Below, in pieces: positions 4,388-63,000 of a DNA stretch of 64,000 nucleotides. Made by a program: the position numbers and the translations under genes. The DNA comes from Aplysia californica (Eukaryota): contig NW_004797808.1 of the NCBI RefSeq assembly GCF_000002075.1, positions 260,102 through 324,101 on the forward strand, in the 5' to 3' direction. The first letter of the stretch is position 1, and the number at the start of each line of letters is the position of its first letter. Under the pieces are notes generated by a model. That model saw only the letters and a list, made by a program, of their open reading frames with translations, did not search any database and was not told the DNA's origin.

Positions 4388-6254
4388 CCATCAGTTTCAT
4401 CAGCAGTGGCAGAACGTGCACATAAAAAACTCTGTTAAACAAGTGAATGTTTTGCTTTTTAAAAAAAGGAAGAAAAGAAAAAAAAAAAGACAAGACACAT
4501 TGAGATATCAAGTAAAGGTAAACTACGGAGTAAGTATGCACAAATAAGTTATTGACACTACCCTAATGGGAAGGATGGACCTGCTAAGATGGAACCAACT
4601 TATCAACATCAGGTTGCAGATTGGTCAGTAGCAGACGCAAATCACTACGCTTCGTCAGCATCCTTTTCACTGCACTGAATCCCCTCTCCTCTAGATAGGA
4701 GGCGGGAAAAGAGGTGAACAACAACTTGATCTTTTCCCACTTGGGGGGATATTTGTCTTGTACAACAGTTTTCAACCAGAATGACTGGTACGGCTTTTTG
4801 AGCAATGGTTTGATTTCAAAGTCACATTTTATCGTCAGAAGCTCTTCTTCAATTGCTACTTGCAAGTTATCATCTGTTTCAGTGTTCAATGGGTCCAGTA
4901 TCCAGTATGAAATTTCCAGTAAAAAAAAATCAGGAGGCTAAACCTTGTCTTCATATCAGCATGCAAATCTCTGAGGTGGTTGCTCTATATATATTTGTAG
5001 TTCCTCGTCAGAAACGCGCCCTTCTTTCAGTGTCTTCGTCAAGGAAAGTGAGAAATTTTCTTCTGCCAATGTTTCGGCGGATCATTTCCAATTTCGACCA
5101 GAATGATGAAAGCCTCGGTCAGGTTGGTGTCATCCCCCTGCAACTGAAAGTTGAACTGGTTGAACTTTGTGAAAAGATCTGTGAGGAGCGCAGTGTTGTT
5201 CTTGTGTTCTTTCAGTTTATTGCAGAGAGCACTGTCTGTTTTCTTGAAAAAAAAAACCTCCAGCACAGAGTCAAAAGCATTGAAAGTACTCGTCATTTTC
5301 AGTGCGCAGAAAAATAGTCTCGAGTTCAAAGCGTGGACTTGGATCTTGTTCACACACTTGATGACAATGGCCAGTGTGTTATGCAGACTTTCATTCAGGT
5401 TTTTTGCCACCAAATTCTGTCAGTGAATGACACAGTAAACAGTAAATACTCCATGGACTGATTTCTTCAAGAAGTTCATAAATCCACGTTTCCGACCTGC
5501 AATCGACGTTGCCCCATCTGTTGCACAGGCAACTGTATTGGTCAGAGGGATCTGTTTCTCCTAGAAAAATTCTTGGACCACTTTGAAAATGGACTCGCCT
5601 TTGGTATCTGTTTCCAACATTTTCGCAAATAACAATTCTTGCATTATTTCCTCATTCTCTATGAACTGATATCCAGTTAAAGGCTGAGCTCACGTCCTTT
5701 AAGCATTTTGCACTGTGATTCCTCAACATTTGCTGACATTTCATCAATACGTTTTTGAATGGTATTGTCGCTTAGTGGGAAAACTTTCAACACAGGCTCC
5801 GGGGCACATTGCAGGACGTGCTGACCACCTCTCTTATGGCAGGCAATATGAGGTCCTCACCAATAACATGGTGTTTGTAATTAGCTGAGATAAACTATAT
5901 GTTGCTCGTAAGCCTTCATCAGCTTGATCGACGTGGGCTGCAAACATCGGTTTAACTGATTTTCATTTCTGAAAATTGATCTTTAGAGTGTTGAAGTATG
6001 CCAGATCTTTGTCAGATTTGTCGTGATGAATCTGCTTTATATGGGATTGGCGGGCTGGGAAAGAAAGTTCTTAGCTATAAGTAGTATTGTAAACGATGCC
6101 TAAGCTATCAATTAAAAAAAAATAATTATGTGGCTCTCACACCGCCCCCTTAGCGCCCACCAGCGCCCCCCAATTGCCCAATTTCGTCACAGCGCCCCCC
6201 ACACTCTCGCCACCGCCCCCTTGGGGACGGTAGCGCCCACTTTGAAAACCACTG
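3669..6254 (-). mobile_element. Decayed hAT DNA transposon, Buster/Charlie (SCAND3/ZBED-like) clade
   Basis: TIRs cagtggttttcaaa (3669) and tttgaaaaccactg (6254). Left flank atctagat matches the Charlie NTCTAGAN target. Minus-strand transposase remnants include PLSDNTIQKRIDEM, CATDGA, LQGDDTNL and FPASYLEERGFSAV...DLRLLLTNLQPD. Subterminal cgccccc repeats. Confidence 0.92.
4295..4392. repeat. (CAT)n microsatellite inside the hAT element
   Basis: catcatcat run; produces the spurious poly-His and poly-Met ORFs. Confidence 0.95.
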
Positions 6255-6520: not shown

Positions 6521-6833
6521 ATGTCGATTGGAGTGCCGATTAAGGTGCTTCATGAAGCTGAGGGTCACATAGTTACATGTGAAACGTCGACCGGCGAAGT
6601 GTACAGGGGCAAACTGATTGAAGCAGAAGACAACATGAACTGTCAAATGGCCAATATTACCGTAACGTATAGGGATGGCCGAGTTGCGCAACTGGAAAAT
6701 GTATATATTAGAGGCAGCAAGATCAGATTCTTTGTTTTACCTGACATGCTGAAGAATGCTCCTATGTTCAAGAAAGTACAAGGAAAAGGTGGTGGCGCTG
6801 GGAGAGGAAAATCTGCGATTCTTAGGGCGCAAG
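6521..6833 (+). CDS. SNRPD3: Small nuclear ribonucleoprotein Sm D3, coding exon 1
   Basis: [43 protein letters not shown]...[11 protein letters not shown] is near-identical to metazoan SmD3. Donor G|gtgag at 6833/6834, phase 1. Confidence 0.98.
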
Positions 6834-6882
6834 GTGAGCAGAACTTTCAACTTTACTTTAGCTTTATCTAAACATCCAGATT

Positions 6883-6978
6883 TCTAGATCTAGAAATCTA
6901 GATATCTAGATCTCTGTGCTTTTTCGGTAGTTCCCACCCCCCTTATTTGAGCCTGACCTACTTCTAGATCTAGATCTA
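6883..6978. repeat. (TAGATC)n-type palindromic array, SmD3 intron 1
   Basis: tctagatctagaaatctagatatctagatct (6883-6913) and tctagatctagatcta (6963-6978). Confidence 0.9.
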
Positions 6979-7131
6979 TGACGTTTGATTCGCGGTGAGC
7001 TAAGCTAAGATATCAAACCTAACACAACAGCAAAACATTAAATTGTGGTAAAATTCAGGGGGGCATGCCCCCCTGAAATCCCCCTTCCTATTTTTGTTAG
7101 GTCAGGGGGGCAAGCCCCCCTGAAACCCCCC
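6976..7131 (+). repeat. Interspersed repeat with two GC hairpins (gggggcatgccccc and ggggggcaagcccccc)
   Basis: Homologous copies at about 25908-26026 (+), 56851-56957 (-) and 61155-61259 (+). Probably an old DNA-transposon fragment. Confidence 0.75.
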
Positions 7132-7254
7132 TACTCTTGGGGCCAAAACCAGTGAATATAACAATTGCGGAGTGGGAACTACCGAAAAAGCGCCTAGATC
7201 TCTTGTGAGGGAAGACTTTGGACTATTGTGTACATATGCTTGGGTTGGGATGTG

Positions 7255-7447
7255 GGAAGGACTTCCGTAACGAGCGACCACCCCATCAAACACAATAAAG
7301 AAGAGGCCTAGATCTAGATCTAGACCTAGATCTAGATTAACCCTACCCCTATCCGTAACCCTAACCCTACCCTTACCCTTACCCTTACCCCTACCCAAGC
7401 CCTCAATTCTGCTCTCTCATAGTGGTCGCTCGTTACGGAAGTCCTCC
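7255..7447. mobile_element. MITE with 9-bp TSD (MULE-like) and telomere-like core
   Basis: TIR aggacttccgtaacgagcgaccac / gtggtcgctcgttacggaagtcct. TSD tgggatgtg at 7246-7254 and 7448-7456. Internal taaccct/taccct repeats. Confidence 0.88.
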
Positions 7448-7745
7448 TGGGATGTGTGTATCCAGTTTCAATTGTGATATCTAGATCTACATATGATCAC
7501 TATTAGATCTATTGGTAGTTTTGCTGATGTACTTTCAAAACAAGCTTTACTTTGTCCGAGGCCCATCCTCGAGACCTGGCAGTTAAACTGTTTCAATCGC
7601 GCGTTTGCATCACTTGACATGACTTCAGTGTGTGTTCCTCCTGTGTCGAGGACCATCAGTTGAAGAGGTTTTTGGGTAGGCCTACCTTGGGGGGGGGGGG
7701 GGGTGTTAGACACCTGGACTAAGTGTAGTAGTGCTTGACGTGATA

Positions 7746-12436: not shown

Positions 12437-12498
12437 CTGCGAGAGGCAGAGGTCAGCGTGGTAGAGGAGGAGGCAACATTTTCCAAAAACGCCGCTGA
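12437..12498 (+). CDS. SNRPD3: Sm D3 coding exon 2 (RG-rich tail and stop)
   Basis: Acceptor ...ttgcccacag. Phase-1 continuation gives AARGRGQRGRGGGNIFQKRR*, the canonical SmD3 C-terminus. Confidence 0.97.
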
Positions 12499-17979: not shown

Positions 17980-18558
17980 AATAACGACATCCTCTATGGT
18001 ATAGCGACATGGTGCCCAGGTTCCGAATTTCCCCTTTTATATCATTAGTAATAGTAATATTATTTTTGATAGCTATAACGACATATTTTCTGGTCCCGGC
18101 GATATTGTTAGAGTTAGAGAGAGGCTGCACTGTATGTAAATGTACGCCAATGTTTTATAGCCCAGCTGTCCTGACAACTTGTATGCCAAGTGAGATATTC
18201 AGAAAAAGGTTTGCCAGGTACAGGAGTCCAGGAGCAGTCTGGCGGGGTATGCCAGACAGGTGGACGAACGAGTGCAGGAAGCGGGTGGCGACGAAGCCCC
18301 GGAAGTGGAAGGACGCCGCCCACTCGGACGGGCCTGTCTGTGGCCTCGTACAGCAGTCCCAGGAGAGCGAAGGGGATCACGTTTTCGAGATCGTTCCTAT
18401 GGCAATTGAGATCAGAAAAGTTAGATTCTATCTAGTCAGAAAAAAAAAATATTCTTGATCATAGAAAATAATCGGATATTTAATAGATCTAGGCGAATCA
18501 TGTTTATCTTAGCAATTTTAACATAACGTATTTTATAAAAAATACCTATGATCTCGAT

Positions 18559-36044: not shown

Positions 36045-37248
36045 CTGAAGAAAAAACACAAAACACAGACAATCACTGGTTAGGTCCTTACATTTTTCCA
36101 AATTGACAACTTTACATAGACGTAATCATGAATTCTACAATGGCAATCTGTTGACTGGATTTTGAGAAAATGTTGCACAAAAAAAAAAAAAAGCGAAAAA
36201 AACACAACAACACCCAGTTAACAGACACAACTAGTATGGGGTTAAATAATTTTACAGATGCTTTGAATAATAAATATTTTCCAAGTGAAATAATGAAAAT
36301 AAGGGGGCGGGGGGTGGGTGGTGTAATGGAAAAACAGCATCCCAGCTAGATGTAGCACTTACAGCAGAGCAAATGGACATTCTATTTGAACACCATGCAT
36401 TATTACACAAGCAGAGACAACTGCGGTGTCATATCGGTCCAACAAAATCAAATGATGTGTTCAAATTTCAGCTAATTGATACAGGCGTTTCCACTAGAGT
36501 TGAATCTGTTCAATATGAAAATCTCTTTCATGAAAGTTAAGCATTTTATAAAAGCAACTCAAGCAGTCACGTGTTAGGTCTATTTAAAACTTCATCTAAG
36601 CTGTCAATTTTTTCTGAGCAAAAAACAACCCCAACCACTCACTATATTTGTGGGTCAACGTGATAGAATCATGTACTGTTCAAAATTTAAGGAACGGAGA
36701 AACCAGTGTTTTTGCGATTGTCGTGCAATTTTTATTGAAATGTTTTTTTTAGCATAGAAACCTCCATTAATTTCATTTTACAGAACACATTTCAGGGTGA
36801 ATTTTGCTGAAAAATTTTGCTTAAGGCCAAAGTATGTTATTTTGGAGAATAAGTATCTGAATTCAGTATCAAAAGTTATCAAACTTTGGTAGCAATTTTC
36901 TCATTAATTTCACATGTAACATCAGTTAACCCCTGCATTCTTAAATCACATGTGTGTGTGCCTGAAGAAAGGTACCAAAAGTCGGATTTTGACCATTTTG
37001 AGTTAAGGGTTGTACCTTGTAGAAAATTCAAAGCTGAACACTGATTTTTGAATTTTTGAGAAATTTCAAGAAGTATTTGAGATATTGGACATTTTGTGAG
37101 GTATGGTATAAAGATAAAATTTTAAGAAAATGAGCTTTTAAGTTTAACAAATTTGAGAACACATACAAACTTGAAAAAAACCAACAACTTAAACTGTATT
37201 CATGGAAAACTCATTTCCAATTTGGCATTTAGTTTACATTAATATGAT

Positions 37249-37362
37249 GATTAGAATTCAATGTTAAAACATAGCAGGGAAGAGAAAACATGCTTTAAGA
37301 ATAGATTAGAATTCAATGTTAAAACATAGCAGGGAAGAGAAAACATGCTTTAAGAATAGATT
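37249..37362. repeat. Exact tandem duplication of about 55 bp
   Basis: gattagaattcaatgttaaaacatagcagggaagagaaaacatgctttaagaata occurs twice. Confidence 0.9.
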
Positions 37363-37377
37363 TTTAACACCTTTTAA

Positions 37378-37622
37378 CTCTTTATCTCCGACGGGGTAAA
37401 CCTACTCAAGGCCCTTTTTTGGTGCTAAATCTAAAAATGACTCATTAAACTTCATTAAATGGAAACTAGCAAGAGTATTTTGATAGTTCATTCTTCATCT
37501 AATGAATGAACTTCTTGTATAAGAGATCTGTTAGTCGGCAATGCCGAAAAGTACTTTGATGCCGAAGTCGTCGTAAAGGAATGTGCCCGAGCCGCTGTTA
37601 GCGGATTGTCGGAGATAAAGAG
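37378..37622. mobile_element. TTAA-specific (piggyBac-like) MITE
   Basis: TTAA|ctctttatctccgac ... gtcggagataaagag|TTAA. Confidence 0.85.
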
Positions 37623-38028
37623 TTAAAAGCTGTTTTCATTATATTCATTTTTTTATACTATACCCTCAAAATAAAATACTGAGAAGTCTAGTCAATTAAA
37701 ACCCTTTTAATATCTTGTTACAAAATGGTGGAGCTATCTATTTTTTATGGAAACACATTTTCATTAAAAAAACCAAACGATTCTTTGTCATTATCAGCCT
37801 GTAGCTCGAAACAGTCTGTAGTGACTTTTGGTACCTTTCTCCAGGCACACACACATATCTCAACTTCTGTGCTACATAGACAAATAATTTTTTCACCAAG
37901 TACAAGAAAAATAAACATATGCTTTAATTTGATAGCAACGACTCAACATTCTCAAAAATCGTCAAGTGCCCATTTCCACCAAATACTGTGACACATTTCA
38001 AGTAAAGAATGCTGGTGATATAAAATTA

Positions 38029-38869
38029 CAGTGGAACTCGGATTCAACGAGATGAGATAGATTCCCCGCGTTTTTTTCTTCTTTAAAATCAATAAAAATA
38101 ACCCGGATTCAACGAGCACTTAAATCAGCGAGTTCGGATTCAACGAGCACTTAAATCAGCGAGTTCGGATTCAACGAGGTCGCTTCCAGGGTGAACTGCC
38201 CCCGCAGACGTGGCTTCGCTCATTTTTCTCCCAGAACGAACTTTATCTATTCCCAGAAACCATCCATTGCAACTGCATTGTCAACCATTATTCACTTAGC
38301 CGATTGCATGCGACCAATCAGCGGCCTTTTTTTTTCATACCAGCTACCAACACATGCGTTGTTGGCTCGCGCACGTGTCTACTCTGGCGTGTGTCGGGAT
38401 CAGATGGGCGGCCTGCACACATGTAACTGTGTGTGTGTGTCAGGGAGGGAGGGGGCGCACTAGCGATCCGGGCGTTGAACGTCGCACAAACGCGTCAGTC
38501 TTTTTTTCCCCTTGGCAACTGATCATTATTAGAATGATAAACTAGTCTTGACGTAGATCTTCGTAATGAATTGTGCGCTTATCTATGAAATCAAAAGTTG
38601 CCGTTATGCTAGGATGTACACAGCAACACAACTTTGTGGTAAACAATCGAGATGACACAGGAATGCATTTGAACGAATCGTTCTTTTTTTTTTTTACACA
38701 GCTCATAATATGCGGGCATTTCAGGCACTATTTGTGACTTCTCTTTATACACAACTTGCTCAGCGCTTGTAATTATCTACACAAAACCTCATGTTTGCTA
38801 TAACGAACACTCGGATTCAACGAGATTTTAGGTCAGGCCCGGCGACCTTGTTGAATCCGAGTTCCACTG
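38029..38869. mobile_element. pogo/Tigger-type MITE
   Basis: TA|cagtggaactcggattcaac ... gttgaatccgagttccactg|TA. Internal 31-bp tandem repeat. Confidence 0.9.
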
Positions 38870-38884
38870 TATATTTCGAGTTAC

Positions 38885-38967
38885 CTGAAGCTCCCACAGA
38901 CAGCTGTCTAAAGCTCGGCATTTTGACATATCTTCTTCATCTTCCAGGTATGGGTCACTGTCAAGAA
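38885..38967 (-). CDS. NOC4L: NOC4L exon 12: VLDSDPYLEDEEDMSKCRALDSCLWELQ
   Basis: Matches DPYDPGEEDPAQSRALESSLWELQ (CBF/Mak21 domain). Phase 1-0. Confidence 0.96.
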
Positions 38968-39047
38968 CTGTGTAAGAAAGCAAAAGTAATTTGGACACAA
39001 TCTCACTCAGGGCTTTGTATATATGCAATTAACAGTAGGCCTACTCC

Positions 39048-39413
39048 TTTAGTCTTAGTAGAGGTTTTTATGGTGCTCGCAACTGCATACATAAGGTCAT
39101 ATGAGTGCCAAGGGGTGGATGTCAACAGAGAAGTCCTTACAGGGAATCAGACTTACTATGCTTACCTCTCTAGCTTCAACAGCACAAAGTCTGCTTCAAC
39201 TATCAAGGCACCCTGGAAATAGCGGGTCACAAACATACAAAAGAAGTAGAGGCAAATGACGATAGGATTAGGAAAGAAAAAGCAGCAGTTCCCTGTTGTA
39301 GTTCAGGCACAGTTATGAGCATGACATTGTGGGATCAGCCCATTTACAATTCTACTTTGCATTAGAACGAGAAATGTCCCTCCTTCGGGAATGGCCTAAA
39401 GACACTTCAGTCA
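39048..39413 (-). mobile_element. Retroposon 3' fragment family B copy
   Basis: Colinear with the 31785 and 43288 copies; same 3' tail. Confidence 0.75.
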
Positions 39414-40807
39414 ACCGCCCATTTTAAGACACCCCCCCCCCCCGAAAGAATATATTTAAAACAAATTACCAATTAAAAAACCAGCAACCAGACATGACAA
39501 AAATATGAAATAAACAGGAAAAGATAGAATATGGGTTAAAAGTATTTAAAATTAGCAGTGAACGTCTCTATGCCTGTGCTCATTTCCAACTTGATCAAGG
39601 AAGGACCACTGATACTGATATTACTGATACATTCAAGTTCTAGACCAGTATGTGAGCCTCAACCAGATTGTCTGAAAATTTATATGATCTTGTAGAACAA
39701 GTGAATAATAGGCCTATTAATGAAATCCGTCAATGAATTGCACTTTTACCAACTTTAACATTACAGTGCAACTTAAAATAGGGCTTGGCACAATAACACA
39801 ATAGAATTGGAATAGGAATCCTCCATCATTATAATGATCTATAAAGATATAGATCTAGTAAAACATGTGAGTAGACCTAGGCCTTGAATTTGAATAAATC
39901 CACATCAGAACAATCGGTTGATAGACAAAATTCAAAATGGCCACTCGAGCACGAAATGAAACTGAAGAAAGTAATTTACGCCGTTGTCCTTCTCCGTATT
40001 TTTCTTGGGTTCCGACAATTTATTATGTCGAAAACACCAACCTTAGCATGAAAACGAAAGTGCAGACTAAGCCGACCGGAGAAAAATGGGGCGCTGGCGA
40101 TTGGCAAGGCCTCTCACATAGACCATGCAGGAGGGCCTGGCGATAGCATCGGCTGAGTCGTGGTTGTTGGACTTCAGATGATTGTCAGCAAACATGTAGG
40201 TCTATTCTATTTCTAATTCTACTGTCTTTTTCGTCCTTGCCGTCTCCACAACTACATCCTTATTAAAGTCCCATTCCACATTCTGACCAGATATTGGCTG
40301 CACTTCATTCCATTTTCTCCATATTGTATTGATAACCAGACAGATTGTCACTGTGAAAAGTACCAGTTACATCACAGAAGATTTGGGAGAAAAGAATTAG
40401 GTAACTCAGCACAACTTGTTCCCTAGAGAAATGAAACTAAAAATATTGACAGAAACCAGAAAAATTTGTCAAACAGAAAATCATACTGACAAATGACAGT
40501 AGATAAGTGAGGTTTGTTTCATACGCAGCTGGGAAATCTCCAAAAATGCAACCAGTAATGAAAGAGAATCTACTCAACAATAAATGTAATTATATATGGC
40601 TCACTGCATGTAACAAGCTATTTAGGAGGGATTGACTTTAAAAATTCCTCACGGGTGATAAAAAAAAAGTAATGCCCACTAACAAAACAACTACACCTAA
40701 ACTTCAGAGAATAACTTACCCTGTCCACGGAGGACCACAAAATAGCTGAATTTGAATCAACCCCTCCCTCTGTACTGATCCAATCAAGGAAAAAAGCGTC
40801 AACTTAC

Positions 40808-40971
40808 CTTCAGCGCCAGAGACTCGGTGCAGAAGTACTTCACACGCTGGATGCCGGCTGATCAGGTTCAGGACAAAAGGAACGGCAATGTGAGCCCCTG
40901 AGGCAGGAGCATGCAGGCACATACGAGACAGACGCTTGGCGAAAGCTGCTATCAGGTATGAGGGAAGATGT
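40808..40971 (-). CDS. NOC4L: NOC4L exon 11: HLPSYLIAAFAKRLSRMCLHAP...NLISRHPACEVLLHR
   Basis: Highly conserved NOC4 block. Phase 2-1. Confidence 0.97.
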
Positions 40972-41631
40972 CTGTAACAAAGCGGAGGAACAAAAAAAAG
41001 GAGCGTGACCAATTTGTGTGACAGAAATAAAGAATTTCAAACTATGAGGAAAGAACTTTTCTCCTCAAACCCAAATTCATTCAATAAATGATTCCACAAT
41101 GCCACCCCCTCAAATGAATAAACTCGTTTTATTCATCTTTATGAAAACCAACTGTCTTTGCGACCTCGGATGCTAAAGTCACACTGATTATTGTAACCCT
41201 CATTGTTTTTGTAAAATGCACTTTCTTCATCGTTGACAGCTTTGGGTATTATTGTCTTAAACACTCTTATCATGAAACATAAGTTCGGAAAAAATCATCA
41301 ATATCTTGTAAATGCTATCATTTACTACATTCATTAAGAAATTCAAGACAAGAAAAAAAGTCCCTCTGATTGCAGTAATGGTTCAGTGTGGAAGATGCAA
41401 AGATACAACATCTCACCCGGAAAAAGAAAGAAAAAAAAAAATTAATAAATAAAAATTACAATAAAAACAAATATATCCAATAACATACTTAAGGAAATCA
41501 CTGTTAAAAAAACCCAAAATTTTACCAATCAGCTGAGTTGAAAAATACATTAATCTAAAATTCTTTCCATGATAAAGGTGAAAACCATGAGTCAATAAGT
41601 TACTATCACAATCACACGCTTCAGCACTCAC

Positions 41632-41742
41632 GTGGATGATAAAAATGTGTCTGCCAAGTGGAAGAACCTTGCTCTGTATTTCGCACCAAACACTTGGGGC
41701 TCAAACATTGAATACATTTTCTTGTAAAAGTCAGGGTAGTCT
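41632..41742 (-). CDS. NOC4L: NOC4L exon 10: DYPDFYKKMYSMFEPQVFGAKYRARFFHLADTFLSS
   Basis: Matches EYPDFYRKLY...KYRARFFHLADLFLSS. Phase 2-2. Confidence 0.97.
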
Positions 41743-41922
41743 CTGCAGAAGTCCAAGTAAAAACTTTACAAGTAAATGTACATTAAAGACAAAAAAGAAA
41801 TAATTGAAACAACATGCCAACTATGAAAAATATATCCATTTTAAAGACAGTTTTACTTCATGAGAAAAAATGAGCATGCCAGTGATGACATCCAACTGAG
41901 AAACATCCATAAAATAAATATA

Positions 41923-42552
41923 CAGTCGAACCTGAGTAAGACGGAATCGCAAGGGAGCCTGAAAAAAGTTCTGTCTTTGACAGGGGAATTTAGTGGAGAG
42001 ATGTAAAGGGCGGTGGGGGTCCAAAGACCCAGTCGGTGGGATTAAGGGTCATTTGTCCGATCGGCAAGCAACCACAAGTGGTCAAAACTTTACACCTCAC
42101 AACCGCTATCCTCTCTGATAATGACATGTGTCAGTCTTATTTATCCAATTACCACCAGTGCTTGCATTTCATAGGACCACTGTTCGACCTATTAAAAACA
42201 GAAATGTTTGAACATCTCCTTTGCTTCCATCCTAAGCTCCACCCATAAGCACAGTCAACCAATGCCACCTCTCACTGCCAAGTAACAACGATTAGAGGAA
42301 CTTTTTTCTCGGCTGGCAGTACAATCATCACAGCAGGCATTGTTCAAACTACTTTCACACTTCTGGCCACCAATGAAAGTTTCAATGCTGGAGCGCCACT
42401 CAATCATTTTCACAGGCACTCGTGAGATTTCACACCCACATCGCTCAGGGCTCACATCTACCCTCAAAATGCACCCCTACTCCCCTTTCTCGCCCGGCAG
42501 CATGGTGTTAAGATTAGAGCCGGTGGACAGAACCAAACTTGCGAGTTTTGTT
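41923..42552. mobile_element. pogo/Tigger-type MITE, partial inverted copy of the 54026-54772 family
   Basis: Starts TA|cagtcgaacctgagtaagacggaatcgcaaggg. Reverse complement of the 54026 and 55665 copies. Confidence 0.85.
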
Positions 42553-42839
42553 TCAATTCAGGACTGAACTGGCAAAACATCCTGAATTTAATATGCTCTC
42601 TAAATCTATAAAAATGTCTAATTTCTGAGACAATATGATTCTCCAATCTTCAATTGACAAACTTGAATTAAGCAAGGACGTGATGCTGCTACGTGTTTGC
42701 AAGTACAAATCCCTGTAATCAGGATTAGAGTTCTTGCACATTCCAAGGATAACAACAAAAAAACGTTTAAAACAAGAGATATAAATAGAACACAAAAAGC
42801 ATTTAACAAATGACTCACAGTGGCAGTGCCACAATAATA

Positions 42840-43012
42840 CTTAGTTTAGCTTTAGTAAGAGCTTTACGGCACCTACAACACAATAAAGTCATATGTGCCG
42901 AACATTTTCGAGGTGTTACAAGATAGTAACAAATTTACATAAGCAGAAGGACTGATAAATATTTGAGAGAAAAGAAGGAGTAAATCACAACAGGGAACGT
43001 GCCAACCACCCA
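42840..43012 (-). mobile_element. LINE 3' tail family A copy
   Basis: gctttacggcacctacaacacaataaagtcatatgtgccg...gaggtgttacaagatagtaaca. Confidence 0.6.
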
Positions 43013-43027
43013 CACAGAAATACTTAC

Positions 43028-43088
43028 AAGTTAAACTTGTGCATGAGAATGAAGAGCCCGTGTAAACTCATCAGACTGATAGCGCCAC
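43028..43088 (-). CDS. NOC4L: NOC4L exon 9: GGAISLMSLHGLFILMHKFNL
   Basis: Matches GGALSLLALNGLFILIHKHNL. Phase 1-2. Confidence 0.97.
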
Positions 43089-43287
43089 CTGCCAGAAAAA
43101 TGACAAATTTATTGTTAACATCTCACAGAGGACATGGATGGTAGTAAAGATAAAAAATACTTCAGTGGTATGAGTACAGTACACCCACGGAATAATAAAG
43201 ACCCAAAAAAAAAATGCGTTCAAAGGTGATACCTGGCTTCTCAGATCCCTCTGAACAGATAGCAAACGCAAGGACTCAAAATTTATA

Positions 43288-43670
43288 TTAGTTATAGTAA
43301 AGGGTTTTACGGCGCTCGCAACTGCATAAGGTCATATGAGCGCCAAGGGGTGGGTGTCAACAGAGAAGTCTTTACAGGGAATCAGACTTAGACTGCTCAC
43401 CTCTCTAGCTTCAACAGCCCAAGGTCTGCTTCGACTATCAAGGCATCCTAAAATAGCAGGCCACAACATACAAAAGAAGTAGAGGGAAATGACAATAGTA
43501 AGGATCAGGAAAGAAAAAGCAGCAGTTCCCTGTTGTAGATCAGGCACAGTTGTGAGCGTGACATGAGTCAGCCCATTTACAATTCTACTATGCTTGAACG
43601 AGAAATGTCCCTCCTCCTTTGGGAATGGTATAAAGACACTTCAGTCAGTGGCACTGCCCCGGGAGGGGGG
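43288..43670 (-). mobile_element. Retroposon 3' fragment family B copy
   Basis: Colinear with the 31785 and 39048 copies. Confidence 0.75.
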
Positions 43671-44172
43671 GTGGCCTCAAAATTTACGGTTTGGAAAATG
43701 CAAAATGTGGACAATTTCAGAAATCTGTATTTCTGGATCTATCCCCAAAATTTGCACCCCAGCTGTGTACGTCATTATATTTTCCACTTCATTGTGTACG
43801 GTAGGCCTGAATAGATGTACATCCATCAATGTCAATATTCACTTTTGATATCAGAGGTGAGCAATGCGACTATAATCTGACCAAACACCCCCCCCCACCC
43901 AAAGGTCAACATCGCAGGCAAGCCAGAGACTTGATGATAGCTTATTATCTTTCCCTCCACAGAAACAAACTGGCTGTATTTCATTATCAGAAAACATGGC
44001 CATATATTTTGAGGTTTAGGTGACAGGGAAGCAGCAGCATGAGACTATTATCATTTCAGGACTTTCCTTCTGACTCCCGACACTTTTCAAAGCGTAAAAA
44101 GAAGGAAACTTTTATATATGACAAATAAATATGGAGAAAGAGGTATCCATTATTCTAAAACCCTACAATATA

Positions 44173-44710
44173 CGAGGGGCATACCAAAAGTTTTTTACTT
44201 GACCATGAAGGAATAAAGGTAGAAGGCTGAAATTTGGGGTGAAAGCCAATAATCATCTTCCTAGAATGCATGTCAATTTTAGGGAATTTCCAATAACTGA
44301 TTATACCATCAGCACACTGTGAGTGAATGGGGGTATGTTGTTCTCAATTTTCAACATAAAAATGAAGAAAATTGAGCACAGTGCAGTAATGAGATTTTTG
44401 TTCTTGCAAGGCAAGCAACAGCATGATATTTTTACGATGCATGCCGCATATGGAACTGATTGCCCATCCTATTCTGTGATGAAATTTTGGGGTAAACAAT
44501 TCAAATGCAGATTCGTGGGCATTAAAGGGCTGGTCTCCTTACAGAGAGAGGACCTCTATTCTCAAGGTCTTTCCAAGGTCATACACTGATGGCAAAAATG
44601 TGTAACTGTGGGAGGCGACTACATTGAGAAAGACTAAGCTTAGTATTAAATTTCAGCTTTGTACCTTTATTCCTTCATGGTCAGGTTATAAACTTTTGGT
44701 ATGCCCCTCG
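44173..44710 (+). mobile_element. Internally deleted mariner element
   Basis: TA|cgaggggcataccaaaagttt ... aaacttttggtatgcccctcg|TA. Transposase N-terminus MKKIEHSAVMRFLFLQGK...AYGTDCPSYSVMKFW is fused to the C-terminus WQKCVTVGGDYIEK. Confidence 0.92.
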
Positions 44711-44859
44711 TAGAGAGCTTATTAGGGAGCAAGATGAGCTTTCAGAGTGACACAAAATTATAAATAATATAAGCACTTTAGCTACTGCCTTTAGTCTAAC
44801 ATAGCCAGAGACAAAAAAGAAGAAAAGAGCTTCAAAGGAGAAGCCACATAAACAAATAC

Positions 44860-44968
44860 CTATGTTGAAAGACTCCGACAGGAAGTCAGCCAGTCGTATG
44901 GGAGTCGACATTTTCTCCATTATTGATGAAATCCCAGTCAAGATTTCTCTGTACAAACCCGTTGGCAT
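44860..44968 (-). CDS. NOC4L: NOC4L exon 8: MPTGLYREILTGISSIMEKMSTPIRLADFLSESFNI
   Basis: Matches LPLSLYKKVL...PTLMIDFLTRACDL. Phase 0-1. Confidence 0.94.
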
Positions 44969-56301: not shown

Positions 56302-57955
56302 TATTTAATAAACATATTTCTGCTTGAGTTTGGGTGCATTTGCGGCATACTTCTAGAGTCGCCTGCGTAGGTACTACACAGAAGCGTAGGCTTGCCTACC
56401 CTCATTCAAAACACGTCAAGTTGAAGTTGGTAGCTCTAGGGGTTCGTTCAATAAAATTAGGAACAAATTGACCCACTTAGACATGAGGAGCTTGGAAGGA
56501 TAACCAGGAAACCACTCATTTTACTGTACATAATCTTTCAAATGAGTTTGAATTTATGAAAAATGATATTACCTAATAAAGTTTATAGATAGTTTTGAAT
56601 ACCATTTTGTGCAGGTAAAAAGAAGAATTAGAATGCAAAACATTCGCAAATTGACCTATACTATTTCTTTTCGACCCCCGGAATGTGTGTAACTACTTGT
56701 GACTTATCAACCTATGAGAGGGGATTGGATCTTGATCTATAACTTATTAATGTGTTCATAACACATTATGAATAGAAAGCTAAAGATAAAGTGTTGTTTT
56801 CAGACTTGGCATCGTTTCACTCGGTGGCAATTGACGCTACCTAAAAATATGGGGGGTTTCAGGGGGCATGCCCTTGTGTATGTAACCAGAATTTGATGTT
56901 TTGCAATTAGGTTTCATATTTTGCTTTGCTCACAGCGATCCAAACATCATATCGTCATGGGCAGCAAAAAGTAGTAATTTCCAACCATATAGAAAACACA
57001 TGTAATCAGTAATTGTATCGTTTAGTCAAATTTGACAGTCTAAGTAGATCTAGTCTAGATCTAGATGTAGAACTAATAATTGTTGAGGCCAAAACTGAAT
57101 TTCGCGGTTAAGTAGATTCAATAGTAGATCAAATGTAAGTCTCAACAGGGAGTCATATATAATATAGGCCCTTTAACTATTTCGAAGTGGCTATGGGTAC
57201 GGCCCTCCCGTACGCATAGCATCGAGGCTATGTGTACGCCCCTCCACTTCACATAATAAGCTAGGCTGTGTATGTGGCACATAATAAACCTGACACTTCA
57301 ACTACAAGTAGACAAACTTAAACCCAGGAAGTGCGCAGGCCCTTTATAAAGGGCGTAAGCCGGGCTACCCGGGAAGCCTTCTATATAGGGATGACCTACT
57401 TCGATTGGGAAGCGCGCAGCTATAAAGGGCATAGACGCTGACCATTTTTCAATGGAAAATTTCAGCATTCCTTATATGGAAAATGACATAGTATATTACA
57501 GGTCAATGTTATAAATAGTGACCAATGACTTTGCAAGTTATCTTGACCTCGTAGAGTGTCTCTTGACCAAAGATTGTACATAACAAAATAGTTCACTAAG
57601 CCAAAAAGGTGTCCACGGAAGAGGGCACCGCCGAATATTGAGGACACTTTTTTTAATTGGCCAAATTATAGAGGAGTGAACTATCTTGTTATACACGATC
57701 TTTGTCTTGGCCAAGATATTGATCGATAAAGTCACGCAGTCCAGCTGAGCGATTATCAAGGCCGTGAGCATACTTCTATCTAAATCTAAGGGCCTTTCCG
57801 TGCCTACGCAAAACATGCGATTAAACGTAGAAGGACGCAAGCTATTTTTAGGTGTAGTGCCCATCTTGTTTGACGTCAGACCAGGATACCCCTCCGATCA
57901 TGTGACTACATCTAAGTATAGGCAACCGCATGGCACCAAAGATGGAAATGTATTA

Positions 57956-58855
57956 CAGTAGTCTCCGCCTAAGATCCCACCTCCTACAATCCCGGTTCGC
58001 TTAAGATCCCGTTGTTTTAAGAAAACAGAATTTTTACTATACAAAAGTCACCCCTAAGATCCCGCTCTGATTCACTCTGAAGGTCTACATTCGGCTAAGA
58101 TCCCGCATTTCAGATCATAATTTGAGGAAAAAATAGTTGAGATAAATAAACAGTCCGTCGCGTCAAAGATCAACCACTATCGTGAATGTGATCACATACA
58201 CGTTGTACAACTCGATGAAGCGATACAATGTTAGCCCCAGACCGGATCACACCGTTTTTCTGAACATCGCACTCACACCTGAGCTCTCCACCTAAACTTA
58301 CATCACTCGCTGGGTGGGCAGGGCCTACACGTTCGCTCCAGACGGGATCACATTGAATGTCCCAGTGAACTCTTCCCTGACCATTGCAGAAGTTGTCTCT
58401 ACTCCCGAATTTTCGAGACAGGCTGAATTTAAATCGGTGTGTTCACAACGTAATGGTGTGTAACGACAAAGGCGGTTGGGGGGTAGGGGGGGGGACTCAG
58501 TCAGAGATGGAAAGCTATAAATTTTCAACAGGTAAGAGGGAGGGGCAACTGGTTACGCGTAGATCTTGAGACTCATGATAGGATAAAAAGCGAAAATGGC
58601 ACGCCTCATCCCACTATGCACTGTAATAGATAAGTCATCAAGGTTAACCACTCTTTGCTCGCAATATGCCATAAACCCACCAAGAGGTCATGTCAGTTCA
58701 TTTTAGAGTGGAGGGAGACAATTGTACCTATTGTGAGCCTTAACATGGATCACCATAGATTCTTCCCTGGGTTCATCGGTTAAGATCCCGGTTCGCCTTA
58801 GAAGATCCCGCATTTCCTTGCTCCCGATCACCGGGATCTTAGGCAGAGACTACTG
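57956..58855. mobile_element. pogo/Tigger-type MITE (900 bp)
   Basis: TA|cagtagtctccgcctaagatccc ... gggatcttaggcagagactactg|TA. Repeated taagatccc motifs. Confidence 0.9.
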
Positions 58856-58889
58856 TATATTAAGCTTAATCTACCTCTCGCTGTCAGAA

Positions 58890-58971
58890 GTTCTGATGGC
58901 CGAATAGACAGCGCGTCTGTGTTCAAAGTCATGCAAAGATTTTATGAGCGGTTCGATCCCGGTCCCGGCCA
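58890..58971 (+). pseudogene. tRNA-like sequence (degenerate)
   Basis: A-box-like tggccgaatag, B-box ggttcgatccc, ends ...ggcca followed by ttttt. Confidence 0.45.
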
Positions 58972-59107
58972 GTTTTTCTTTCTCTTCTCCTCCGCCCGAC
59001 TGACCAACAGTTTGTCCCATAAATTATAATTTGTTACTTTTAGTTTGAAATTTTAAAATGTATTAGTGATTAAAAATGCAGGGGGGGGGGGGGGGGGGTT
59101 AGTGTAG

Positions 59108-59864
59108 TAGATCTAAATTTAGATATCTAGATCTAGATATTATCTAGTCCTCCTGCGTCTTTACGGCAATTTTCGTGCGGTCTTCCATCATGTCCAGGTA
59201 GGCCTAATAGATCTAGATCTAGAATTTAGATCTAGATCTAATCTAGAATCTAGATTTAGAGATCTAATCTAGAATCTAGATCTAGATCTAATCTAGAATC
59301 TAGATTCTAGATCTAGATCTAGAAAATCCGAAATGTTACCGAAAACACGTCGTTCCATGTTTGGGTATCCCAGGAAGTGATGACATCAAATTACTAAAAT
59401 AAGCAGCCAATCAGAAAGATGCGTCATTTCTAAGTTTAACGGCATGTCAAAGCAACAGGCTATTTTAAGTCAAGACACAGACAGTCACAATCAACCACTA
59501 GAATTAGGGAAAAACTTCCGTAACGAGCAACCACCCCATCAAACACAATAAAGAAGAGGCCTAGACCTAACCCTACCCTTACCCCAAGCCCTCCCCCAAG
59601 CCCTCAATTCTGCTCTGTCTCATAGTGGTCGCTCTTTACTGAAGTCCTCCCAGAATTGGAATCTAGATCTATATCTAGATTCTAGATCTATATCTATGAT
59701 AACAATGATGGCAATGAGGACTACCTTCTACATCTAGACTCTAGATTTAGATCTAGATCTATGCGTGTAGATCTATTCCAGACTCTATATAATGTGACGA
59801 GTCTCGTGTCGATATTTTAGTTATCTTGCACAAATTCTACTTGCAGCCAGACAGTAGATCTAGA
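59108..59864. repeat. Cluster of (TAGATC)n-type arrays in NOC4L intron 1
   Basis: Arrays at 59108-59147, 59207-59323, 59661-59697, 59733-59775 and 59856-59864. Confidence 0.93.
59508..59650. mobile_element. Second copy of the 7255 MITE (9-bp TSD)
   Basis: Same TIRs and body. Flanks tagaattag / cagaattgg (7 of 9 match). Confidence 0.85.
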
Positions 59865-59921
59865 CTTATCCAACTATCATAGCATGGGTGCAAATGAAAA
59901 TCAGTGGACGAAATTGTTTAC

Positions 59922-60041
59922 CTGATTAAAACTCAAAATGTCCAGCAACAAATTGGCATTTTTATGATCACTCAGGATGGCTGCTGTTTTCTTCCGAATT
60001 GATTTCTCGGTGGTAGTGGAATTTTTCGTGCCTGCCATCAT
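59922..60041 (-). CDS. NOC4L: NOC4L (nucleolar complex protein 4 homolog) exon 1: MMAGTKNSTTTEKSIRKKTAAILSDHKNANLLLDILSFNQ
   Basis: Resembles AVLASRSEANAVFDILAVLQ. Donor CAG|gtaaac. The 14 exons sum to 1422 nt, i.e. 473 aa plus stop. Confidence 0.85.
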
Positions 60042-60064
60042 TGAATGTTGACTGAATTTATACC

Positions 60065-60410
60065 ATGCTGCTTCCGGTCCAGTTATAACTGTGAGGAAAA
60101 TGTCTAATAATAACCACCAATGAAAAAGTATCACTTCGAAAAGAAGCTTGAGAAGAGGTTGGTGCGCATGCGCTAATCGCGAAGACGTTCTCTTTGGAGG
60201 GAGAACCCTCGAGCACTCCACGTCTGAAAATATTTCATTTTTTGATAATTTCTTCCATGTGCAAAGTGGCCACTGGGTAAAAATGTTTAGCTAAGTGTCT
60301 GGTTCGGTTGGAATTGGGCTTTTTGGCCATGATGGAGGGCGAATGTGAGAGCATTTTGTAAAAACTATAGGTATGTATGACCAAATTCTCTTACTCAAAA
60401 TGGCGTCAGT
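60065..60410. promoter_or_regulatory. Putative NOC4L promoter (possibly bidirectional)
   Basis: ETS-type cttccggt at 60071-60078, NRF1-type tgcgcatgcgc at 60163-60173, and YY1-type caaaatggcg at 60396-60405 pointing away from NOC4L. Confidence 0.6.
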
Positions 60411-61471
60411 GTGAAATGTCGAACTCGTGCGCAGACAGGGTGCGCACACAAAACTACTACGTTCACTGGCAATGCAATGAGGCAGCTTTGCCTAGCCTAG
60501 GCTAAAGCAAGAAACTGGTTGTTGGATCGTGAACATTTTTTACAGATTCCGTGAAATAAATGATGACTAATGCATTTGTATCCTCAGTTAATGCGTTGGC
60601 AATGCTTTTGAGTCACTGTGTTCATGCATAGAAAATATTTTGTTTTGTAACTGACGTATTCGCGATTTTATTTTTTTTGGTCGCAGTCGCAGATCACCCC
60701 CACTGGCCTTTATTTCGCAGCATCATGCATGTTATCCACCATACATTGCCGCCCAGATCAGGCCCCGGCGCCAAGAAGCAAAGCAAAAGTTTATGCGAAA
60801 CTTTTAGCCCTTGAAGTTATACAATGGGATTCGCTTCCTGGGACTGGGTATTTACATATCTAGATCTAGATTAGAATCTAGAACTTACCTTCTATGTTTT
60901 CAGTGACTCATCCTTTTTTCTTCTTTTTTTTGTAAGAGACTTTCAAAGGTGAGATTGGGTTACATGTCTCAGTCAGGGTTTTACTTGTACAACAGAGTGG
61001 TTATCCAGGTAAATTTTTACTTTCACTCCCGCACACAGATACACTGCTTCAGGGGTCAAACTGCTGTACACTGTTTGCTGCAGATCACACATAAATAATA
61101 AAGTCACTAAAACTGTCGCAAATCAATCATTTTCAGGAAAATTTCAAATCTAGGCCTAACTGTAAAATATCAAATTATGGGTTAAAACAGGGGGCATGCC
61201 CCCTGTAACCCCCCAGATTTTCTTTTACACCAGGTGGGCAGGCCCCCCTGGAACCCCCGATTGGTCCACAGCACGTCTGTCTCGATTAAGAACAATAAAT
61301 TATTTCAAAAACTATTAATTTGCGACGGAAAAGAAGTTGATATTTGTGTTCAGCGCATCAATATCTAGTAGAAAATGGACAACTGGTAGCCTATTGTGAG
61401 ACGGGAGGGAAAGTAAAAAAATACCGTTATCCGTACAATTGTGCGAACAACTCTGTCTAGATCTAGTTATC

Positions 61472-61662
61472 GGGAAGATTGAAGAATACCGGACCACCCA
61501 TACATCATACAGTATTGTTCTCCTGACAAATTATTAATGAATAGATCTACTGGTCCGAGATTCTCCATTGAGAGATCATTAAAAAAACTGGGGGAAATCA
61601 TGAATTCCTAAGGTTGAGACAGGCAAAGTCAGTCCGCTGGTCCGGTATTTTTCAATCTTACC
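61472..61662. mobile_element. MITE with 8-bp TSD and GG termini (Merlin/MULE-like)
   Basis: gggaagattgaagaataccggacca / tggtccggtatttttcaatcttacc. TSD tagttatc at 61464-61471 and 61663-61670. Confidence 0.82.
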
Positions 61663-61839
61663 TAGTTATCCGTATAAGTGTCCCCACTATTGCTACACCA
61701 TTGTACGAATAATTGCTTCAGGTATCCGTACAATAATAGGCCTACGCCTAGGCTTTCTCAGTTCCAGGCCATACAGTACAGCCCGCACGACTGGCCTCAG
61801 CATTGGAGGCCTAGCAACCGCGTTCCCAAAGGGTCAATG

Positions 61840-62515
61840 CAGAGATGCCAACCAGTACGATTTTACGTATTTTAGTACGATTTTTGGCCGAAAATACGCG
61901 AATACGACTTTTCATGAAAAAATACGCATCCTGGAATGCGAAAACTACGAGATTCAGCTTGGGCGAGTAAACTTAATTATCTCAGGTCCCATCTTTTGTC
62001 AAAATAGTATCAGTATCGCAGAACTGGAATATTTGAAAGGGAGTGTATACAGACCCGGTAACCGGGAATAAAGTCGCAAAGTATACAGACCCGGTAGGGG
62101 AACTCTTTGTGATTTCGGAAAGTTTCAGTATTCAGTACCCTCTTGGCTCAGGGTAGAACTAGGTTCTTCTAGATCTATACAGACAGATATAAATCATTGA
62201 TCTAGTTTCGAGGCTAGCCTAGATCTAGATAGATCTAAATCTAAATGAAGATTGTGGATGTCTTTTCGTTGAACGATGGTTTTTCACCCATTTTGGAGTT
62301 GGAGGAATCACAGTTTGAAGAAAAGGACATGTCATAATTTCAATCGAGCAGTCACCCTCTCTACTTCTCTCTCTCTCTCTCTCTTTCTCCCTCTCTCTCT
62401 CTGTGTATCGCTCGCATTCTCTTTTTCTTTGTTTGTCTCTGTCTTTCTTTCTCCCCACCTATTTCCCACTCCATCTTTCTCTCGTTCCCCCCTGCCCCTG
62501 CTCTCTTTCTCTCTC

Positions 62516-62547
<32 letters not shown>

Positions 62548-63000
62548 AACACACACACACACACACACTACCGGGTCTGGGCGCTGAAATTTTCCGAAAC
62601 CACAAAAGAGTTCCCCTACCGGGTCTGTATACTTCGTGACTTTGTTCCCGGTTACCGGGTCTGTATACACTTCGTATTTGAAAACCAAGTCCGATGTGGT
62701 CAGTAAGTTTTTTTGCCGGTCGCGATCGTGATATTATATTTATTTGTTCATCTTTTCCCCGTCTGGAGAGTACGTTTCACTTTCACGCGAAATGGCGGCA
62801 GGCGGAAGCGTATGCGACACCGAGGCTCGATCGGGAAAATCAAGATCAACTTTCGCTTTCGTTACCACCGAGAAGTTGTCTGATAACGCAACATTTGTGG
62901 CATGCAGATTGTGCAGAAAAACGCAATGTCGCCGTTCAAATAAAATGTAATAAATACTCTGACTCGTCGCTGTGCTGTCACTTGTGGGAAAAAAAGAAAA
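61840..63000 (+). mobile_element. 5' part of a hAT-like element with a BED-finger remnant, interrupted by a MITE
   Basis: Terminus cagagatgccaac with tacga/aatacg subterminal repeats. Downstream MAAGG...FVACRLCRK...CHL resembles a decayed BED zinc finger. Confidence 0.5.
62039..62674. mobile_element. MULE-like MITE with TIRs of about 90 bp and 9-bp TSD
   Basis: agtgtatacagacccggtaaccggga... inverted at the right end. TSD tatttgaaa at 62030-62038 and 62675-62683. Contains a (CT)n/(CA)n run and TAGATC units. Confidence 0.9.

Follow-up and report, generated by a model that had tools for sequence, protein, structure and literature searches.

Likely transposon scars crowd the starts of many housekeeping genes in Aplysia californica

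Introduction

Why do short palindromes gather beside gene starts in Aplysia californica? The window (the whole 64-kb stretch of DNA that was analysed) contains 54 copies of TAGATCTA, against 0.72 +/- 0.79 in shuffles, and a perfect 22-nt array gives 4708 forward hits genome-wide. The arrays parse as chains of TA-linker-TA units. The preliminary description confined them to promoter-proximal first introns and saw in them a possible record of germline open chromatin. As set out below, arrays crowd within ~2 kb of many housekeeping gene starts, likely as the scars of jumping genes, and nearness to a start, not intron rank, is the rule.

Arrays and genes in the window

The coding part of SmD3 exon 1 (6521-6833, + strand; Pfam LSM, 6e-17) contains no TAGATCTA, and exon 2 is placed near 12450 by translation. 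The exon-1 donor GT occupies 6834-6835 and the first unit starts ~48 nt further on, in agreement with the ~50 nt originally described. The array at 6882-6914 has the linkers GATC, GAAATC, GATATC and GATC, its final 8 nt forming the left target duplication of a miniature transposon at 6915-7194. Additional units lie at 7478-7511, in sequence without a repeat match in the 2-Mb sample. Intron 1 (5.6 kb) has 8 units in its first 700 nt (11.4/kb) and none in the remaining 4.9 kb. Gene labels below the family level are, here and throughout, our presumption. Just upstream of SmD3, positions 4584-5900 (- strand) hold broken reading frames that we take to resemble Buster/Charlie-type hAT transposase; two of these frames, scanned against Pfam, gave no hit.

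A long (TAGATC)n array at 25644-25766 lies ~1.9 kb before the ATG of a C2H2 zinc-finger gene (27603-29408) and matches the third array of the preliminary description. It contains a recurring TATATC variant and was thus amplified by slippage. Unit density before this gene is 11.7/kb. The acceptor at 27602 implies an unseen exon further upstream; RNA from three polyA runs and a contig run, placed over 24950-44900, was dominated by repeats and left that exon undefined.

The third gene is NOC4L-like, as suggested by a CBF domain and a weak PDB match (E 0.43). Its exon 1 (59922-60207, - strand; the extent is the reach of an X7 contig) contains no TAGATCTA. The donor at 59921 is backed by the contig of run X7, which fits only 59922-60207, and exon 2 (55023-54909) was placed by eye. 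Arrays and single units, mostly without a repeat match, adjoin the donor at 59659-59862. A multi-unit array had been placed ~60 nt past the donor; there is a single unit at ~57 nt, and multi-unit arrays begin from ~150 nt. Unit density in intron 1 is 17.4/kb proximally and 0.5/kb distally. The later introns had been credited with single units only, and the region after exon 2 (29409-54908) indeed holds five singles in 25.5 kb (0.2/kb). The segment 60266-60372 (+ strand) is probably exon 1 of a divergent transcript, as one 1360-nt X7 contig fits only there, and the two transcripts probably share a bidirectional promoter. The 451-nt core between NOC4L and the probable divergent exon has no units, and six lie beyond that exon in 60373-62400 (3.0/kb), probably in intron 1 of the divergent transcript. 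Exons and core promoter, which the preliminary description held to be purged, are both free of units in the window.

An Rfam scan of the window returned no matches. The last exon of a MAPEG (MGST/PTGES-like) gene lies at 18118-18396 (- strand); its halves match Pfam weakly and in different frames, with an ACAG tandem duplication near 18340 at the frame change, which represents a null allele, a pseudogene or an assembly error. Exons upstream of it were not found. Around 52588, in NOC4L intron 2, a single TAGATCTAGA lies in a repeat; its 1-kb bin has a CpG o/e of 0.94 and one CCGGAAGTG word.

Position relative to gene starts

For other genes, starts were inferred from coding exons and expression class was assumed from gene family; a cluster was defined as three units within 700 nt, and the region tested comprised 7 kb upstream of the earliest coding exon detected. 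Twenty fixed-position stretches (79 kb in total) served as background, replacing two contiguous 100-kb stretches that were biased, one having been picked around known arrays. They contain 18 units (0.23/kb), with a cluster in 2 of the 20; since these stretches are shorter (4.5 kb versus 7 kb), densities are the proper comparison. The 5' regions of Sm/LSm genes have a cluster in 12 of 16 cases and 1.39 units/kb (~sixfold over fixed positions), those of Ras-family genes in 13 of 42 (0.54/kb) and those of P450 genes in 2 of 18 (0.33/kb). Sm/LSm regions differ from P450 regions (Fisher, p=3e-4) and from Ras regions (p=0.003); four of the 16 Sm/LSm regions have no cluster. Of 20 LSM hits, 16 entered the set after removal of SmD3 itself and of three exons lying downstream. 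Among N-terminal hits, 3 of the 45 to Ras and 6 of the 24 to P450 were left out, as were 18 of the 30 DnaJ loci for want of a usable Met; coverage of DnaJ genes was +/-1.5 kb only.

In the Ras and DnaJ sets, 23 ATGs are without an upstream acceptor and thus candidates for first-exon ATGs; 8 of them have at least three units within ~1.5 kb, and the other 15 have no cluster. ATGs with an acceptor are unit-rich in 1 of 24 cases (p=0.010 versus acceptor-free) and fixed windows in 1 of 17 (p=0.054). The profile around candidate ATGs peaks on either side and dips at 0 to +250 nt, and clusters are found on both sides of the first exon. SmG resembles SmD3, with four units between +984 and +1105, inside an intron of 5.3 kb, and one at -734. 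Uniform distribution, which would have spoken against the original proposal, is not what is seen, as units follow the starts of ubiquitously used genes. Confinement to first introns does not hold: units also lie upstream of ATG exons (loci L189, L197 and L347), past exon 2 in a DNAJC21-like gene (L351; 8 units ~2 kb in), 3' of a single-exon CDS (L327) and across the NOC4L start. Those upstream of ATG exons could lie in first introns of unseen exons or of divergent genes.

A start motif, which we take to be YY1-like, was rejected as an annotation-free promoter proxy because 13 of 30 loci belonged to one transposon family; these 13 loci were reused as a negative control. Members of this family (L239, L245, L247 and ten more) carry TCAAGATGGCGGC followed by TTTCCATAGCAAC and show no enrichment in array zones.

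Origin of units at lone TA dinucleotides

The sampled DNA (2.04 of 927 Mb, 0.2%) was aligned to itself, and an indel was kept if a single copy had it and two or more copies lacked it. This gave 330 polarised indels in repeat copies, 248 of which are not exact duplications. Twenty-five create a TA-G[AG]..[TC]C-TA word. In 20 of them (two rows being one site) the TA is duplicated, a lone TA having become TA-GATC-TA or TA-GGCC-TA; the remaining five are without that form. No template was present within 30 nt in any of the 20 TA-form rows. Several events place two or three units at a single TA, and 10 of 42 non-duplicating 6-nt insertions consist of TA plus G[AG][TC]C or TA plus CATG. Two such changes occur in the window: TA to TAGATCTA at 26386-26393, in the repeat copy 26237-27014 (absent from the five aligned copies shown), and TA to TAGGCCTA at 61151-61158, in a repeat copy with five empty counterparts. 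The DNA around unit-creating events is somewhat richer in units (median 3 per 2 kb) than that around other indels (median 1; p=0.04). Across 264 contiguous kb, partly chosen near arrays, TAGATCTA (30x) and TAGGCCTA (24x) are the two most enriched 8-mers.

The empty sites dispose of three candidate sources. The flanks of the target TA differ (aTAt, gTAc, tTAg, cTAa), so a CTAG seed is not needed and cannot be obligatory. Fold-back or template switching from neighbouring DNA is ruled out by the absence of a template within 30 nt, and hAT/Buster target-site duplication by empty sites of 2 bp, not 8.

Miniature transposons and their cargo

Two miniature inverted-repeat transposons occupy most of the interval 6834-7511. 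The one at 6915-7194 has GG...CC-type ends and an 8-bp target duplication (TAGATCTC), and its units at 6963-6978 are common to other copies. The other, at 7255-7448, has a 27-bp TIR, an 8-bp target duplication (GGGATGTG) and an internal CCCTAA/CCCTAC repeat; within its family, 28 of the 36 copies that could be measured have a target duplication agreeing at 7 or all 8 of its 8 bases. The array inside it (7307-7338) was gained in place, given that 117 copies have the unexpanded and 15 the expanded pattern at this one internal site. A second window copy (59516-59650) is unexpanded. Flanks are unit-rich in 36 of 45 copies, and flanking density is alike for expanded and unexpanded copies (p 0.19, 0.06 and 0.66), which speaks against an effect of location on a finer scale.

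Near NOC4L, the inverted-repeat element at 57812-59447 carries the largest array of that gene (59108-59323) as cargo, and copies of the element near two Sm/LSm genes carry similar arrays. It has a 9-bp target duplication in two other copies, and a TA-flanked CAG...CTG element is nested in it at ~57953-58854. For another such element, at 62038-62675, the family majority sequence already has a TAGATCTA cluster (62168-62237). Units common to another repeat copy number 45 of 160 near Sm/LSm genes and 40 of 162 near Ras-family genes, both lower bounds; for the window the number is up to 29 of 54, six of which may be array-to-array matches. At DnaJ loci, 64 of 66 units have no repeat match. At least a quarter of units arrive as miniature-transposon cargo. 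In long arrays, slippage is apparent as periods of 6, 24 and 50 nt.

Repeat-masked flanks of three miniature-transposon families contain 1.5-3.7 units/kb versus 0.14-0.55 in six control sets, among them Tc1 loci (0.35), another transposon family (0.43) and exon flanks (0.14-0.24). The array zones are therefore landing sites of several independent heritable insertions. A further family of ~1-kb miniature elements (L297-L326), with related window copies at 26237-27014 and 38141-38697, has ACTTCCG and AAAATGGCG in its majority sequence, words that we take to be typical of housekeeping promoters; this suggests captured promoter DNA, Pack-MULE-like.

Linker grammar and the predicted parent element

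In the GA family, enrichment is 24x for GATC, 13x for GA[A/T]TC, 17x for GATATC and 1.5x for GAATTC; in the GG family it is 13.5x for GGCC, 6.6x for GGGCC/GGCCC and 3.3x for GGC/GCC (400 contexts), all in a hot-zone-rich sample in which oversampled repeat families may inflate the GGC/GCC counts. The 3-nt form for GAT is not common (1.0x). In hot bins the 3-nt form is ~1.8 times the 4-nt form in the GG family and 0.1 times in the GA family, although GAT/ATC is itself 3.5x higher in hot than in cold bins. The linker variants read as prefixes and suffixes of a single fixed end. Enrichment of GATC, GA[A/T]TC and GATATC, but not of GAATTC, suits a predicted GAT end, and the second family fits GGC; the linker families are compatible with 3-nt overhangs GAT and GGC. 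TAGGCCTA is enriched in the same hot bins (4.1x per TA). As an internal control, TACATGTA (0.6x) and TAC[AT]GTA (0.9x), which the CA-ended elements of the sampled DNA should leave behind as scars, show no hot-bin enrichment.

With modest confidence, the units are most likely excision scars of a predicted TA-targeting element, amplified by re-hits, slippage and transposon cargo. This cut-and-paste element would end in GAT (a sister family in GGC), target TA and favour insertion in open chromatin around germline-active gene starts. Insertion would duplicate the TA and excision would leave two 3-nt 3' overhangs, which end-joining via their self-complementary last two bases (AT/AT or GC/GC) would convert to GATC or GGCC, and looser joining to GA[A/T]TC and GATATC. 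Two GAT overhangs would pair only through AT/AT, giving GATC, whereas two GGC overhangs could pair through GC/GC (GGCC) or around one mismatch (GGC/GCC), as in Sleeping Beauty. Each footprint would offer two new TA targets, so that arrays could grow by repeated hits. Selection would clear exons and core promoter, leaving units in the flanks at ~0.05-3 kb, often but not always in intron 1.

The 2.04 Mb, a zone-rich sample with more than 1100 distinct units, yielded no multi-copy TA-flanked element whose ends read GA...TC or GG...CC, and wherever ends could be made out among the best 30 Tc1-type transposase loci, they are different ones. The parent may be extinct or absent altogether; it may also be rare, if most insertions that persist close to essential promoters are revertants. 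A 1069-bp element with TAGACC...GGTCTA ends (L064:794-1862) was rejected as parent, since its 6-bp direct repeat, a target duplication, lies outside the TA, which therefore belongs to the element end. Partial copies of this element, presumably IS3EU- or hAT-like, occur in the window and at other loci. An abundant Tc1-like family (L088-L116; ~1.65 kb, with open DDE frames in many copies) has TA-flanked AACTAG/AACTCG ends, unlike the usual CAG.

Alternative explanations

A nuclease or domesticated transposase might cut TA in open chromatin, with repair writing a fixed palindrome that is templated in trans or added by a polymerase, so that no transposon ever passes through. To our knowledge, no enzyme of this kind has been described. 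The empty sites are equally compatible with such a process, two or three units enter one TA in several events, and no parent appears in 2 Mb, although 18 units in 79 kb extrapolate to ~2x10^5 across the genome. We nonetheless regard it as unlikely: the contrasting 3-nt behaviour of the GAT and GGC families is a prediction of fixed transposon ends, and TACATGTA likewise arises at TA in a genome in which TA-flanked CAG-ended elements are present.

That the arrays are ordinary microsatellites, spread as cargo of promoter-seeking miniature transposons and lengthened by slippage with no special process, is improbable as an account of their origin. Units arise de novo at a lone TA without a template within 30 nt, the enrichment persists in non-repeat flanks, and almost all DnaJ-locus units lack a repeat match. 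The route itself is a real contributor, to judge by the units common to repeat copies (45/160, 40/162 and up to 29/54), the cargo nature of the largest NOC4L array and the slippage periods given above. Selected functional DNA at housekeeping promoters (factor binding, a cruciform or a nucleosome-linker signal) would also explain why units are enriched near gene starts. Short motifs do mark accessible linkers in teleost hypomethylated domains, according to the excerpted text of PMC5607494, and DNA folding gives hairpins of -35 to -38 kcal/mol for the long arrays, as it would for any palindromic repeat. Yet position, side, spacing and unit number vary widely, many housekeeping starts have no units, units arise within passenger repeats and the zones are common to two different palindromes, which leaves this reading little credence.

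A record of germline open chromatin?

The proposal that arrays record germline open chromatin is plausible and partly supported, with heritability and gene class standing in for germline accessibility. Units are enriched at the starts of genes taken, from their family, to be ubiquitously expressed. CpG o/e is higher at clusters than in the adjacent gene body (0.66 versus 0.51; 12 pairs, p=0.003) but not above that of fixed-position DNA (0.67). It is a tentative and rather doubtful extension that a TA-cutting element or nuclease wrote ~10^5 scars at germline-open promoters, leaving a fossil map of accessibility, and that promoter palindromes of other animals arose alike; TAGGCCTA clusters and teleost TAGC-type motifs would then stem from other element ends. 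If true, the map would amount to a natural ATAC-seq track readable from sequence alone, and in the poorly annotated molluscs raw sequence could reveal where germline-active promoters and 5' exons lie. One common type of k-mer-enriched "promoter motif" would then be a mutational by-product and not a binding site. A direct search is possible, as the model predicts the ends (TA|GAT, TA|GGC), the 3-nt overhang and the promoter bias of a prolific element.

Comparison with known systems

No description of the motifs as footprints or promoter marks was found in open-licence papers and preprints, and the known systems below are compared on the basis of excerpts from the papers cited. The periodic An/Tn clusters (PATCs) of Caenorhabditis elegans are likewise a non-coding feature in introns, tied to germline expression, but they are 10-bp-periodic A/T tracts with an anti-silencing function, whereas the units are palindromic insertions at TA (PMC4947018). 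Teleost hypomethylated promoter domains hold short motifs such as GCTAAC (PMC5607494). These resemble the units as short TA-containing words in accessible promoter DNA, mostly unlike known factor motifs; the words and the phylum differ, however, and the excerpted text reads them as nucleosome-linker preference.

Among transposons, ISL2EU (PHIS) has inverted repeats starting with GG and a 2-bp target duplication, AT within A|AT|T, while Pangu, Nuwa and Harbinger duplicate 3 bp (PMC4482050). A PHIS footprint was rejected as the source of the units, since it needs an AT duplication and the empty sites are TA. Maize Mu inserts near transcription starts and open-chromatin marks (PMC2774946). The miniature elements that reside with the units, which have inverted repeats and 8-10-bp target duplications, similarly crowd gene starts; however, the 9-bp duplication of Mu leaves TA-linker-TA units unexplained, and no transposase was matched to the miniature elements.

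The closest parallel is with Tc1/mariner elements, whose footprints comprise TA, 2-4 terminal bases and TA and derive from 3-nt 3' overhangs, as in the TACAGTA/TACTGTA of Sleeping Beauty (PMC6943129; for the excision mechanism, PMC2874221). The Tc1 footprint TACATGTA is quoted in PMC3520976, where the abundance of TACATGTA in Phytophthora promoters is read as a binding site. In contrast to Tc1/mariner scars, the linkers GATC and GGCC imply G-ended elements, which were not found in 2.04 Mb. The units are also very abundant (~0.2/kb at fixed positions), are built into tandem arrays and focus near gene starts, whereas CA-type scars in the sampled DNA do not. The units share with Tc1/mariner footprints the TA target, the TA duplication and 2-6 extra bases that fit end-joined short 3' overhangs.
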